A stretch of DNA of 64,000 bases from an uncultured Oligoflexia bacterium (GTDB lineage: Bacteria > Bdellovibrionota > UBA1018 > UBA6935). The position numbers and the translations under genes are program-made. The notes beneath the pieces were generated by a model, which saw only the letters and a program-made list of their open reading frames with translations, ran no database searches and was not told the origin of the DNA. The stretch's first letter is position 1. Each line of letters opens with the position of its first letter. This document shows, in pieces, positions 49,332-54,386 of this stretch. The stretch spans positions 121 to 64,120 of the forward strand of contig CAXGWU010000011.1 in assembly GCA_964013565.1 (NCBI GenBank), written 5' to 3'.

Positions 49332-49748
49332 TTAAATTGCATCACATCGACTTCTATTTGAATCAATAAGTGTGGGTGAAGGTAAAACGAAATAAGAAGG
49401 TAGATCTCTTACGAGTTGATTCTCTTCGATCGATTTATATGCAGGAACTTCTACGGAGCGGATGAGTCCGTTGTAAGTATTTCCATAGACATCAGTTGAG
49501 CTATAATAGAGGTTACAAGAAACATAACTTCTTGTTGGGTTTTCAATAGCGAAATAAAGAACAGCAGTCCCTTGTTGTTGTGTTTGCAGAGGTTTTAGTT
49601 TAGCTCGACCACAAGTGCAGTTATTGTTTGAATCACAAACTAAGATATAAGGGTGAGCGCATCGGGCCCAACCTTGCTGTGCGATAAAAGTCATAAAAAA
49701 ACTCAGAGCGATGAGTTGAATTGTTTTCATTGATTTTCTCCTTATCAA
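49332..49748 (-). CDS. Small secreted Cys-containing protein, last gene of the candidate RiPP operon
   Basis: Signal MKTIQLIALSFFMTFIAQQGWA. 6 Cys in the mature region. Confidence 0.4.
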   Translation of the reverse strand: MIRRKSMKTIQLIALSFFMTFIAQQGWARCAHPYILVCDSNNNCTCGRAKLKPLQTQQQGTAVLYFAIENPTRSYVSCNLYYSSTDVYGNTYNGLIRSVEVPAYKSIEENQLVRDLPSYFVLPSPTLIDSNRSRCDAI

Positions 49749-49805
49749 CCCTGTTTATCTTTGATAAGAACGAATTGTCTATAGAATAAAAGGACATGTA
49801 AGAGT

Positions 49806-51887
49806 TTACTGAATGACTTTTTGTGTTATTTTTGTTGCCGGATTAAACTCTTGACTTCTTGTGAGATGTTTCATTTTTAAGAAATGATATGCTTCTTGCA
49901 GCGTGGACCAGTTTTGATTTGAAAAAAAAGTCAATCCTTTTTGTTGAGCAGCTCTTCTCTTTGCAGCTTCTCCGTGGATGGTTCCGATTTTCCCATTTTC
50001 TAAAATATGACCACTTGCACTCCATTTTTTTAACTGACTTTGATAGAGAGTATTTTTTAAAGAAAGAGAGAGTTCAATGAATGCTAAAGCAAAAGCTAAT
50101 CCACAAGATTCTGTTTGAGCAACTTGATAATTCTCGTTTTCACTAGAACTTATAAAAAATGTGTAATTATTTAAGTTTTTAGTTGAAGGACAGGTTTTTA
50201 TAAGAGTTTTAATTGTGGAAATAATGGTGTTTTGAAGTGATCTCGATAGGTGATCTTCAAAATGAAAATTTATTTTTGAGGAATAAGATTTTTTTATTTT
50301 AATTTGAAATGGAATTTGAATGGCTTCAGTTCCTTTTTTGTTACATGCTAATAAATGAATTTTTTTCCTTTGATCAAAAGAAGATTCTAGATGACTTACT
50401 CTAAAGATAGTATATTTTTTTGACCACAGTTCTAAGATAGACTCAAAGTAGATTCTTGTTTTTGAGTCAATGTGAACATCTGGTTCATCAATAAATATAA
50501 ATCTAACATTTTTATCTAAACTTTGAATGATTCGGATAAGTGAAAATACAAAAAGCTCTCCTGACGATAGATTTTTTTCTTTTTTTAAAGAGACAAATAC
50601 TGTTTTAAATTTATTTAACCAAAAATTAATTTCTTCTTGAGAAAGATTTTTTAATTCTTTTTCTATTTTTATTTTCATTTTTTTCCAGTTTAAAGAAATG
50701 GGTGAAATCTTCTCGGGTCGAGAAACAAGTGATCTATATTTTCCGTGAATTTGATTTTTGATTATTTCGATATGTTCTCTTTTCCAATATTGGTATTCTG
50801 TGCAGTGTCCTTTCCAAGCTTCTATTAATGTTGATTTTCCAGAACCATTTTCTCCATGAATCCATTGAATGCCTAATTGAGGTGTGAATGATACTAAGCT
50901 TTGATCTAATAGTTTAAATTCTATAGGAAAAAGTTTTTTTTGAACCCGCGGTTTTTTATCTACTGAAATTAATATTTTTTCTTCCAATGACGAAATTTGA
51001 TTTTTTAAAGAATGATATTCCTGTTTTTGAATGAGTAGTTGTCTCAGTGCATTTAATCCTTCCATTAGATATTCTGTGACTCCAAACCAAATAAATGCAG
51101 ATTTAATGTCTAATTTTCCTGTAAAACAAGAGTACATTGTAATTACAAAGCAAATTAAAAACGGTAGATCTAAACTTAATTTAGATAACCCATCTTTTTT
51201 AAAAAGATTTAAATGAAGTTTTTTTTGAATTGAAAACCAAGAATTCCCACAGTTTTTAACCCAGTCGAGATAATTTTCTAAATGAGAAAAATTAGAATAA
51301 ATTTCGGAATTTCCTCTAAAAAAACTAGATATCCAAGTGAGTAATTCTGATTTTGATTTTTGTAATTGATTAATAATTTTTTTATATTGATTATGGTACC
51401 ATTTTCCGCTTATGTAAGAAAATAATGTAAGAATAGGGATATACGTGACTCCAGTCCAGTATTGATCGCTAATAATGATTGTTGAATAAATTACTGTAAC
51501 TGAAATAATTGTTGAAATTAAAGTGATTTTTTCAAATTTCAAATTTTCTATTCGATTTCGTTGTTCTGAATAATAGAGATAGACTTTGTCGTAATCATTT
51601 TTAATTTGATGATTTACAAAAAGGGGAAAAAACTTTCTCCAATGAAACTGAACTTCATTTATTGACCATGTAGATTTAAAAAATTCCCTGATAGATAAAA
51701 TAAAGTGAGCAGATAAGTGCAAGATAATTACGAAGACTGTAAGTAAAATAAAGGATTTTAAGTTCAATTTCTTTTCTACGATTCCACTAATCCATTCACT
51801 TTTTTGTGAAACCATTAAAAAATGAAGAAAAAAGTAAAAGAATGTAAATGCAATTAAAAGTGCAGATTTTATTTTATACCGATTCAT
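49806..51887 (-). CDS. ABC exporter (fused TMD-NBD) with C-terminal Lon-type (S16) peptidase-like domain
   Basis: N-terminal ~5 TM helices. Walker A GENGSGKST, ABC signature LSSGE, Walker B FIFIDEPDVHID and H-loop RVSH. C-terminal ~150 aa read TESCGLAFALAFIELSL…WSASGHILENGKIGTIHGEAAKRRAAQQKGLTFF, paralleling Lon DGPSAGxxMxTALxSxLT…VAMTGEITLRGxVLPIGGLKEKxLAAHRxGI (Ser-Lys dyad). Confidence 0.6.
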   Translation of the reverse strand: MNRYKIKSALLIAFTFFYFFLHFLMVSQKSEWISGIVEKKLNLKSFILLTVFVIILHLSAHFILSIREFFKSTWSINEVQFHWRKFFPLFVNHQIKNDYDKVYLYYSEQRNRIENLKFEKITLISTIISVTVIYSTIIISDQYWTGVTYIPILTLFSYISGKWYHNQYKKIINQLQKSKSELLTWISSFFRGNSEIYSNFSHLENYLDWVKNCGNSWFSIQKKLHLNLFKKDGLSKLSLDLPFLICFVITMYSCFTGKLDIKSAFIWFGVTEYLMEGLNALRQLLIQKQEYHSLKNQISSLEEKILISVDKKPRVQKKLFPIEFKLLDQSLVSFTPQLGIQWIHGENGSGKSTLIEAWKGHCTEYQYWKREHIEIIKNQIHGKYRSLVSRPEKISPISLNWKKMKIKIEKELKNLSQEEINFWLNKFKTVFVSLKKEKNLSSGELFVFSLIRIIQSLDKNVRFIFIDEPDVHIDSKTRIYFESILELWSKKYTIFRVSHLESSFDQRKKIHLLACNKKGTEAIQIPFQIKIKKSYSSKINFHFEDHLSRSLQNTIISTIKTLIKTCPSTKNLNNYTFFISSSENENYQVAQTESCGLAFALAFIELSLSLKNTLYQSQLKKWSASGHILENGKIGTIHGEAAKRRAAQQKGLTFFSNQNWSTLQEAYHFLKMKHLTRSQEFNPATKITQKVIQ

Positions 51888-53699: not shown

Positions 53700-54191
53700 T
53701 TATTTTTCGAAACGAATCACCCCACCGTTTACCAGTAGAGTCATTCTGTTTTTGTTTGAATTTTCGTTATTAAATTCTAAACGAGCTTTTCCGTATTTTG
53801 ATTCTGGACGAAATTCAGAAATTTGAGACTGAATGACTCCCCCAGACACTTTTGCGGAAATAGTTTGATACGATTGGGTTAATTTCTTCGAGTTCTTAAC
53901 AGAAATCACACCACCATTAAGATGAAGTGATAGATTTTTTTCTAATGGAACTTTAAGAAAAATTTGAGCACCCGTTGGACATGGATTGTTACTATGAAAA
54001 ATCCGATATCGATTTTCATTTTTATCCATTTCTACTTCTGCTTCGCAGGAATCAGTTTTTGTAGATGTCATTTCTACAGACTTTAATCCTTTGACAACAG
54101 TCAGATGAACTGTTCCTTTGTCTACCTCTATTTCCATCGCATTGACCATTCCGGTTGATAATAAGACTGTTATTATGCTGAGTGCTTTCAT
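53700..54191 (-). CDS. Secreted protein with repeated beta-strand 'NGGVI' units (DUF4097-like)
   Basis: Signal MKALSIITVLLSTGMVNA. Repeats LHLNGGVISVKN / AKVSGGVIQSQI / LLVNGGVIRFEK. Confidence 0.4.
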   Translation of the reverse strand: MKALSIITVLLSTGMVNAMEIEVDKGTVHLTVVKGLKSVEMTSTKTDSCEAEVEMDKNENRYRIFHSNNPCPTGAQIFLKVPLEKNLSLHLNGGVISVKNSKKLTQSYQTISAKVSGGVIQSQISEFRPESKYGKARLEFNNENSNKNRMTLLVNGGVIRFEK

Positions 54192-54203
54192 TGAATACTC
54201 CGT

Positions 54204-54386
54204 TTAGAAAGAAAAACCACGAGATCCAGTTGATCCAGTCGGTAGAAGTCCACCTCCTTCAACTCCATCACTGCCTCCTTCTTTTCCATCACTACCTCCC
54301 TCTTTTCCGTCACTACCTCCAATTCCAAAATAGATAGATTGAAGATTTTTTAAGTTTTGATCGTCATTTTCAATTTTTTTAGTCAT
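54204..54386 (-). CDS. Candidate RiPP (graspetide-like) precursor peptide with triple-repeat core
   Basis: MTKKIENDDQNLKNLQSIYFGIG-[GSDGKEG][GSDGKEG][GSDGVEG]-GGLLPTGSTGSRGFSF. AAGGAA RBS 8 nt upstream. The gene is first in an operon with two ATP-grasp ligases and an ABC exporter. Confidence 0.5.
   Translation of the reverse strand: MTKKIENDDQNLKNLQSIYFGIGGSDGKEGGSDGKEGGSDGVEGGGLLPTGSTGSRGFSF
54257..54319 (-). repeat. Three tandem 21-nt repeats encoding GGSDG(K/V)E
   Basis: Coding strand: ggaggtagtgacggaaaagag / ggaggtagtgatggaaaagaa / ggaggcagtgatggagttgaa. Copies differ mainly at synonymous positions, plus one K-to-V change. Confidence 0.8.

Follow-up and report, generated by a model that had tools for sequence, protein, structure and literature searches.

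Six co-directional minus-strand open reading frames (ORFs) lie at positions 49332–54386 of a 64,000-nucleotide stretch of DNA from an uncultured Oligoflexia bacterium (contig CAXGWU010000011.1), hereafter called the window. We find it likely that this cluster holds a horizontally mobile graspetide-type operon for a RiPP (a peptide that is made on the ribosome and modified after its translation), in which an ATP-grasp ligase and a pseudo-ligase would cross-link a repeat peptide, an S16-type domain would trim it, and an ABC protein would export it. A graspetide-type RiPP operon had been proposed in the original prediction for this DNA. The proposal is supported, with refinements, by the co-conservation of the genes, the lineage of the ligase, and the motifs of the peptidase; the chemistry of the product is predicted from sequence. 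The coordinates agree with the earlier ones, and the gene junctions (in order, gaps of 12 and 15 nt, overlaps of 4 and 14 nt, and a gap of 57 nt) bear out the tight packing described there. The features that carry the argument are the following.

54204–54386, minus strand: precursor peptide gene, 60 aa; homologues adjoin an ATP-grasp gene in about 35 loci; the repeat block hardly varies, and selection acts on the protein
54318–54386, minus strand: precursor leader, residues 1–23, containing an IYFG motif
54255–54317, minus strand: repeat block of the precursor, residues 24–44, three heptads (GSDGKEG, GSDGKEG, and GSDGVEG)
54207–54254, minus strand: variable tail of the precursor, residues 45–60, ending in FSF-COOH
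52869–53684, minus strand: p271, modeled graspetide-synthetase ATP-grasp fold lacking the conserved catalytic residues; predicted non-catalytic partner subunit
51874–52872, minus strand: 332-aa ATP-grasp ligase, predicted catalytic macrocyclase with K181, R221, H223, R243 (of DYRY), D279, E292, and N294 intact
49806–51887, minus strand: ABC fusion gene
50931–51887, minus strand: transmembrane domain (TMD) of the half-transporter, ABC fusion residues 1–319, with hydrophobic segments and an NCBIfam match
50343–50930, minus strand: nucleotide-binding domain (NBD), ABC fusion residues 320–515, with Walker A GENGSGKS at 345, LSSGE at 440, Walker B FIFIDE at 463, and VSH at 497
49854–50354, minus strand: S16/Lon-type peptidase domain, ABC fusion residues 512–678; predicted leader peptidase

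The precursor reads MTKKIENDDQNLKNLQSIYFGIG, followed by (GSDGKEG)(GSDGKEG)(GSDGVEG) and GGLLPTGSTGSRGFSF. An AAGGAA Shine-Dalgarno sequence stands 8 nt before its ATG, so that the ribosome-binding site, the 23-residue leader, and the three tandem repeats that had been described are all present. At the DNA level, the repeats form a 21-nt unit in 3.3 copies with 85% matches. Nearly all related loci have a homologue of this small ORF beside that of the ATP-grasp gene, 39 such ORFs in all. The 35 distinct precursors among them share four elements, namely an (I/F)(F/Y)FG motif, the repeat block, a hypervariable stretch of 15–25 residues, and a C-terminal (Y/F)-x-F. Every position of the repeat block S-D-G-K-E-G-G-S-(D/E)-G-K-E-G-(G/S)-(K/S)-D is kept in 30–35 of the 35 precursors, and this holds for each of the donor and acceptor positions S0, D1, K3, E4, S7, D/E8, K10, E11, K/S14, and D15. 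The C-terminal (Y/F)-x-F occurs in all 35, often as D/E-Y-x-F (for example, DYQF).

To assess selection, 12-codon blocks encoding SDGKEGGS(D/E)GKE were picked by a peptide regular expression, which 31 of the 35 distinct precursors match. The 31 DNA versions differ pairwise by 2801 synonymous and 130 non-synonymous codon differences, including AGY to TCN serine switches and the reverse. This excess of synonymous differences indicates that the constraint acts on the peptide. Judged by these codons, the 60-aa ORF is a genuine translated gene. The original prediction had made its case dependent on the conservation of this ORF in relatives, which is now observed in about 35 loci together with protein-level selection. 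Two features expected of a graspetide are found here: a ribosomal precursor adjoining an ATP-grasp gene, and conserved Ser/Thr/Lys donors and Asp/Glu acceptors in the core.

The third repeat has decayed across the family, leaving a nucleophile (K/S) at position 14 and D15 as its conserved remainder. This remnant hints at links that bridge the repeats. One may speculate on K3–D8 and K10–D15 combined with S0–E4 and S7–E11. The C-terminal aromatic-x-Phe could serve in recognition as a follower element, act as a signal for export, or offer a carboxylate that reacts. This C-terminus (54207–54215 in the window) resembles the C-terminal signature of outer-membrane beta-barrel proteins that is sensed by DegS PDZ domains.

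We give hardly any weight to the possibility that the small ORF is not the substrate, and that the enzymes act on another protein or metabolite while the peptide has a different role. The Bacillus homologue speaks for it, since there the corresponding segment forms the N-terminus of a 159-aa YciI-like protein, a fusion suggesting that substrates can be larger proteins. Against it, about 35 loci from five phyla have the peptide gene as a direct neighbor, and the peptide is made up of exactly the residues that serve graspetides as donors and acceptors. Moreover, the precursor gene is found as tandem paralogues, three in Psychromonas and at least two in locus L006, which is typical behavior of RiPP precursors. 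In the Psychromonas metagenome-assembled genome (MAG), the three paralogues (L032, 5375–6063) share the repeat block and an FVF C-terminus, and their leaders differ slightly. The L006 precursors have SKD(G/N/D)-type repeats, and in that locus a protein with DUF4360 and a ricin-B lectin domain follows the ABC-Lon gene.

The 332-aa protein was identified as an ATP-grasp enzyme through its family. A Pfam scan of the single protein gave a sub-threshold match to YheCD as its sole match, and its three best NCBIfam matches were graspetide maturase models (TIGR04187, TIGR04192, and TIGR04185, the last being MvdC). Searching the PDB sequences with the ligase-family profile returned only PsnB, the plesiocin enzyme (1.2e-12), AMdnB, and MdnB; the PsnB match spans only about half of the 332-aa enzyme. 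K181, R221/H223, DYRY, D279, and E292-x-N294 do not vary across the family, and the window protein has them all. The lysine loop and E-x-N motif claimed for this protein were therefore correctly recognized, K181 and E292-x-N294 being invariant. The intact ATP/Mg residues indicate that the 332-aa ATP-grasp protein is competent for catalysis, and by sequence it belongs, as a deeply divergent member, to the lineage of the graspetide synthetases.

The partner p271 was much harder to place. Single-sequence Pfam and NCBIfam scans gave no match, the p271 profile had no match among the PDB sequences, and hhalign of p271 against the ligase family was not significant (probability 0.8%). A homologue search returned only p271 itself with the single sequence and three proteins with an alignment query; an exhaustive HMMER search yielded 149 family clusters. 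A first AlphaFold model from a 3-sequence multiple sequence alignment (MSA) was discarded (predicted local distance difference test, pLDDT, 37.5). The model built with an 82-sequence MSA reached a pLDDT of 94.6 and a predicted template modeling score of 0.91, and its top fold matches were MdnC and AMdnB with at least 250 residues aligned, in line with a three-domain ATP-grasp fold. Hence, the profile searches failed to recover the ATP-grasp assignment of the 271-aa protein, and its fold was seen only in the AlphaFold model.

The catalytic residues tell a different story from the fold. No Lys is conserved anywhere among the 82 p271 sequences. The K181 equivalent is Y/F/S/C, the two ExN positions are M/C/S and S/N/T, and R221, H223, and DYRY are lost, while E228 (the D279 equivalent) and a basic residue at 183 are kept. 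Neither the ATP-binding Lys nor the Mg-binding E-x-N of an ATP-grasp enzyme is conserved. The earlier description of this protein as a second, divergent ATP-grasp ligase thus stands for the modeled fold and falls for the catalytic residues, which are lost in the 82 members. From the model and the alignment, we infer that p271 would be a non-catalytic paralogue of the ligase. In four members of the p271 family (557–612 aa), p271 is fused to the ligase, whose half of the protein is fully intact. They provide Rosetta-stone evidence that the two proteins act as one unit. In addition, a p271 homologue adjoins the ligase in 37–40 loci.

The full three-domain fold, with its long alignment to MdnC and AMdnB, would also suit a second active ligase with a non-canonical site, for example one forming amides while the 332-aa enzyme forms esters, as in the MdnB/MdnC pair. 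The presence of both Ser and Lys donors in the core and the retention of E228 and the basic residue 183 point the same way. We nevertheless consider an active p271 very unlikely, given the family-wide motif loss described above and the fact that loci L006 and L037 have, besides p271, an additional ATP-grasp domain in tandem whose motifs are intact. These two loci encode double ATP-grasp proteins of 569–579 aa (L006, 2835–4574; L037, 2995–4704), in which both domains have intact motifs, besides a separate p271, and they appear to need a second catalytic activity.

A further variant was seen in L041 (249–2846) and in the contig of P0103, where a fused p271::ATP-grasp gene has a gene of the PF05118 Asp/Arg(Asn) beta-hydroxylase family immediately upstream. 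This neighbor suggests a hydroxylated, tailored sub-family. One of these fused-enzyme loci further contains ABC genes, a 58-aa ORF, and the gene of an Rce1-like protease. For L041, no precursor was recovered on a contig that is too short to show one.

The ABC fusion protein is built like a half-exporter: its TMD precedes an NBD in which all the motifs (Walker A, signature, Walker B, and H-loop) are intact. An NCBIfam family of peptidase-containing ABC exporters matched its residues 8–510 (E 1e-5). The C-terminal domain was aligned with its relatives in a set of 15 members, consisting of five fused C-termini and ten standalone proteins (165–180 aa) encoded at the head of Legionella-type clusters. 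The family is very divergent (14–23% identity among members), and Ser594, Gly632, and Lys643 (window numbering) are the only invariant columns. The codons of the predicted catalytic Ser594 and Lys643 lie at 50106–50108 and 49959–49961, respectively. Of the 40 PDB matches of the family profile (best E 1.3e-4), 39 were CalpL or proteolytic domains of Lon. The Ser aligned with the serine of the Lon PSAG motif, and the Lys with the catalytic lysine of GGVTQK/KEK, which is the sole Lys in the LonB GGVTQK. This occurrence of the invariant Ser and Lys at the positions of the Lon dyad argues for catalysis. Pfam Lon_C was reached by three of the 15 members (best E 4e-8), and the Prokaryotic Genome Annotation Pipeline (PGAP) independently names the Bacillus homologue an "S16 family serine protease". 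Since the domain follows an ABC NBD or stands alone and has no AAA+ module of the kind found in Lon proper (LonA/LonB), it would be an S16-type domain and is not a Lon protease.

The S16-type domain is fused to the exporter in Bdellovibrio-type loci and is encoded by a separate gene in Legionella-type loci. This fission or fusion from lineage to lineage ties the peptidase to the exporter. The domain is present in 28 of the 28 loci that have a leader-bearing precursor (12–24-residue leader) and adequate sequence; in L024, the sequence is cut off exactly at the expected gene position. In chlamydial-type loci, the precursors are leaderless, starting M-G-(W/F)-S-SDGK with stop codons just upstream. 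None of the five clearly leaderless loci has the S16-type domain in the available sequence, and an ABC-2 NBD and permease pair is found instead. A leader peptidase would be expected to disappear together with the leader, as this domain does, and the start of the leaderless precursors suggests cleavage right before the Gly of the FG motif. We regard these observations as supportive of, though not decisive for, a predicted leader peptidase.

Other roles of the S16-type domain can be envisaged, such as removal of the C-terminal tail, degradation of unmodified precursor for quality control or immunity, processing of the secreted proteins p163 or p179 (described below), or service as an inactive peptide-binding module that passes the substrate on to the transporter. 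The Lon match is weak (E about 1e-4), the leader correlation comes from one clade, and standalone Lon-like domains are regulatory elsewhere, as exemplified by CalpL among the PDB matches. However, the Ser and the Lys, which make up two of the only three columns without variation, fall on the Lon dyad. The domain disappears exactly where the leader does, while the C-terminal tail and p179 stay, which argues against tail or p179 processing. Its fusion to the cytoplasmic NBD end also parallels the logic of peptidase-containing ABC transporters (PCATs). On balance, we consider such other roles unlikely.

With the above results in hand, a mechanism can be proposed for the graspetide-type operon. 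The ligase and the pseudo-ligase would form a heteromer mimicking the usual homodimer, and this would bind the precursor via the (I/F)(F/Y)FG leader motif and/or the C-terminal aromatic-x-Phe. The heteromer would phosphorylate Asp/Glu side chains in the (SDGKEGG)2-(K/S)D block. The activated side chains would close onto Ser hydroxyls, giving macrolactones, or onto Lys amines, giving macrolactams. The S16 domain would cut off the leader at the cytoplasmic face of the transporter, likely just before the FG-motif Gly. The ABC protein would then export the product to the periplasm, where p163 (p179 elsewhere) may act on it or bind it.

Several points weigh against this reading. The ligase, with 37.6 bits at best against a cut-off of 350, lies far below all curated graspetide maturase models (TIGR04184–04187, TIGR04192). 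The predicted inactivity of p271 rests on motif loss read through a weak sequence alignment and the order of secondary structures. The repeat block, conserved across phyla, could be a recognition element and the variable tail the core; the tail of the window precursor, however, has no Asp or Glu for activation. The likening of the exporter C-terminus to a Lon S16 protease in the original prediction is upheld by the family profile and the Ser-Lys dyad, but the domain of the window alone has no Pfam match and its assignment leans on that profile, with E about 1e-4. Finally, the correlation between leader and S16 domain amounts effectively to one evolutionary event, that of a single leaderless clade, and several of the contigs concerned are short.

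The scores of the ligase also leave room for another type of ligation, which would not be that of a strict graspetide. The ATP-grasp enzyme could activate the alpha-carboxylate of the C-terminal Phe and so close a tail-to-side-chain lariat, or, like RimK and TTLL enzymes, it could attach free amino acids or amines to Asp/Glu. The C-terminal Phe is invariant in 35 of the 35 precursors and is kept even in the leaderless ones. The window tail after the repeats has no acidic residue, the ligase stays under every curated graspetide cut-off while RimK-family models match it weakly too, and related loci hold extra tailoring enzymes acting on Asp or Lys (the PF05118 hydroxylase and 2-oxoglutarate (2OG) dioxygenases). 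We give such chemistry a small but real chance. Its standing is lowered by the nearest sequence and fold relatives, which are macrocyclases and not RimK, by the strictly conserved block, which contains exactly the graspetide donor and acceptor residues, and by the Megaira precursor, which does not end in Phe.

Homologues of the 332-aa enzyme are rare, amounting to about 20 clusters at 30–39% identity among 5.8 billion proteins, and they occur in 33 of 185,579 species genomes. The carriers are Legionella (L. nautarum, L. fairfieldensis, L. yabuuchiae, and others), Legionellaceae and Coxiellaceae MAGs, Psychromonas, Chlamydiae (Waddliaceae and Parachlamydiaceae), and Bdellovibrionota/Oligoflexia. 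More distant versions of the cluster reside on plasmids of Candidatus Megaira (Rickettsiales) and Bacillus wiedmannii. The cluster is thus found mainly in bacteria living inside or preying on other cells. A search of viral contigs returned no relatives of the cluster. The ligase gene is accompanied by the small ORF and 271-aa homologues in essentially every locus, and a comparative-genomics check of the gene set, as suggested with the original prediction, confirmed this co-occurrence of precursor, ligase, and p271.

In the window, the GC content is 0.25–0.31 in the cluster core (about 49.9–53.8 kb) and 0.36–0.44 in the flanks. This low-GC island spans the ABC, ligase, and p271 genes and matches the expectation for acquired DNA. 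Its borders (49900–53800) carry no integrase or tRNA mark, and the whole window contains 0 tRNA genes.

Three of the related loci have further contents. On the Ca. Megaira polyxenophila plasmid pPCS109 (AP017967.1; L042, 5696–9196), the precursor MKGCSKDKKDGKDCSKDGKDSD…, which does not end in Phe, is followed by the ATP-grasp gene, the p271 homologue, and two dioxygenases of the 2OG/isopenicillin N synthase type; the 5 kb or so upstream hold transposase and integrase genes. The Firmicute version on the B. wiedmannii plasmid ppl277 (NZ_CP133559.1; L043, 2953–5966) begins with the 159-aa "YciI family protein", whose N-terminus, …ILFGGDAGKESSDKGKDASDKGKDASDG…, looks like a precursor leader and repeats fused to a folded domain. 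Downstream of it are a standalone S16 serine protease (named by PGAP), a p271 homologue, and an ATP-grasp gene. In L. nautarum (L002, 10637–16184, the same as L034 in contig NZ_LNYO01000023.1), a second, canonical graspetide cluster stands directly downstream of the SDGKEGG cluster. It encodes a 53-aa double-Gly precursor (…LGKVAGG/SVEGTVKVTGNSSSPDGGVDTRVDW), a 366-aa ATP-grasp with a match to the MvdD pre-ATP-grasp domain, a HEAT-repeat protein, HlyD, and a C39 PCAT, and it is of the type of the published Legionella Gra-7/group 8 precursors.

A core that is nearly identical in different phyla suggests a single conserved product whose target is conserved too. A bolder reading extends this to a single cross-linked molecule shared horizontally among intracellular and predatory bacteria (Legionella, Coxiellaceae, Chlamydiae, Megaira, and Bdellovibrionota), which would hit a conserved host, prey, or envelope target, for example via mimicry of the YxF end of outer-membrane proteins, and would be made by a heteromeric synthetase with a possibly unprecedented C-terminal carboxylate chemistry. 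We regard this combination as decidedly unlikely.

The remaining features of the region concern secreted proteins and the upstream sequence.

53700–54191, minus strand: p163, secreted protein of 163 aa with a Sec-type signal peptide (MKALSIITVLLSTGMVNA); conserved in Bdellovibrio-type loci
49332–49748, minus strand: p138, Cys-rich secreted protein of 138 aa, co-directional with the cluster; no homologue in related loci
54387–54655, minus strand: upstream intergenic region with the AAGGAA ribosome-binding site at 54400–54395 and a terminator-like hairpin at 54639–54618

The place of p163 is taken by p179, which is secreted and has about 180 aa, in loci of the Legionella, Psychromonas, and Chlamydia types (33 loci). 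No similarity between p163 and p179 was detectable by hhalign (probability 0.3%), so that their equivalence is positional only. For p179, a sub-threshold match to the bactofilin beta-helix was obtained, and single-sequence Pfam and NCBIfam scans of p163 and p138 gave no match. Neither p138 nor a 164-aa secreted protein encoded upstream of the cluster (54656–55150, minus strand) has a counterpart in about 40 related loci. This makes the membership of p138 in the system doubtful, and both proteins are, judging by this lack of conservation, probably outside it. Of the two small secreted proteins that had been counted as part of the operon, p163 is conserved in related loci and the 138-aa protein is without homologues. 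The hairpin at 54639–54618 ends the gene of the 164-aa protein. The operon promoter presumably lies within 54387–54655; promoter-like matches in this region (21 observed versus 27.6 expected in shuffles) are not enriched, and we do not claim a promoter.

The window DNA matches a contig of a marine Bdellovibrionaceae MAG (GCA_002722705.1). About 4.5 kb upstream of the cluster, an unrelated operon contains a genuine RimK-family ATP-grasp gene (58881–59786, minus strand) with a RimB-like neighbor. We rejected the idea that the 332-aa enzyme is a RimK-like modifier of ribosomal protein S6: the real RimK is at that position, and the nearest relatives of the 332-aa enzyme are macrocyclases. A known defense system was likewise rejected, because PADLOC gave only generic ABC-ATPase similarities for the cluster.

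If the proposed operon is confirmed, the pseudo-enzyme/enzyme pair could reveal how graspetide synthetases, normally homodimers, recognize their substrates. The compact module coupling cleavage to export might find use in engineering. Legionellales, Chlamydiota, and Bdellovibrionota carry, on low-GC islands and plasmids, a core in which nearly every residue is the same. Such conservation points to a single product, itself conserved, that may have a role in host interaction, an idea open to testing in the cultivable L. nautarum, L. fairfieldensis, and L. yabuuchiae.

Within the graspetide class, three features of the cluster were found in none of the searchable literature: a full-length degenerate ATP-grasp paralogue as an obligatory, sometimes fused, partner; a predicted leader peptidase of the S16/Lon Ser-Lys type at the exporter C-terminus; and natural leaderless precursors. 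The searchable literature contained no description of this cluster family, no paper with SDGKEGG, none on graspetide pseudoenzymes, and nothing relevant on Legionella graspetides of this kind or on Lon-like RiPP peptidases. SDGKEGG was absent from the precursor collections in the accessible part of Makarova et al. 2022 (PMC8939145) and from the examined part of a 2026 RODEO census. Within the portions of these two sources that were covered, their supplements in part, there was no Lon/S16 and none of these taxa with this precursor type. The Legionella graspetides in the accessible parts of both are of the double-Gly/PCAT type (PMC8939145, PMC13097080). The cluster family might sit unremarked in a numbered group of a sequence similarity network. 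By its motifs, the system has the testable properties of a graspetide except scores above the curated hidden Markov model cut-offs, and it is not categorically new.

Among known systems, plesiocin (PsnA/PsnB, graspetide group 2) shares the repeated core in a small precursor and the single ATP-grasp macrocyclase, and PsnB is the closest solved sequence relative. The plesiocin core is TTxxxxEE, whereas the core here is of the SDGKEGG type and is accompanied by a pseudo-ATP-grasp that co-occurs obligatorily, as well as by an S16-type peptidase and a secreted protein. Microviridin (MdnA/MdnB/MdnC) shares the presence of two ATP-grasp-fold paralogues in one operon, as well as an aromatic leader motif (PFFARFL there, IxIFFG here) adjoining a Ser/Lys/Asp/Glu core. 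The second copy here lacks the catalytic residues, the core motifs are unrelated, and leader removal in microviridin is not performed by an S16 domain. According to the accessible part of PMC8939145, both microviridin ATP-grasp enzymes are catalytic. The core had earlier been held apart from those of microviridin, plesiocin, and thuringinin, and the distinction stands for the first two.

As far as the accessible parts of the sources go, repeated-core and partner-dependent graspetide synthetases are both established (PMC9576775, PMC13097080), the latter having first been reported in 2026 (PMC13097080). Rosaritide MirB/MirC and corallotide share with the present system a synthetase that depends on a strictly co-occurring non-catalytic partner, and corallotide also has a repeat character, in the form of repeated Lys-isopeptide motifs (PMC13097080). 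There, CorD and a chaperone-like protein of the PpiC type act as partners, in contrast to the ATP-grasp paralogue here, and the accessible part of that paper describes no ligase fusions or S16 peptidase for them (PMC13097080).

For the exporter, PCATs with a C39 domain (for example, LahT) offer the shared principle of a leader peptidase fused to the transporter, with cleavage coupled to export. Their peptidase is an N-terminal papain-like Cys protease acting on a double-Gly leader, whereas here a C-terminal Ser-Lys S16 domain is found; the protein has no C39 match and a membrane-spanning N-terminus, and most leaders have no GG. The Lon domain, standalone LonB, and CalpL share the profile match of the fold family and the aligned Ser-Lys dyad. 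The nearest published description, from the accessible part of its source, is branch 8 of Makarova et al. 2022 (PMC8939145), which may overlap distantly with the cluster. It likewise combines an ATP-grasp, a catalytically inactive ATP-grasp-like protein, and peptidases (PMC8939145). In branch 8, as described there, the inactive ATP-grasp is truncated and no precursor was found, whereas in the present cluster the partner is full-length and the precursor is obvious (PMC8939145).

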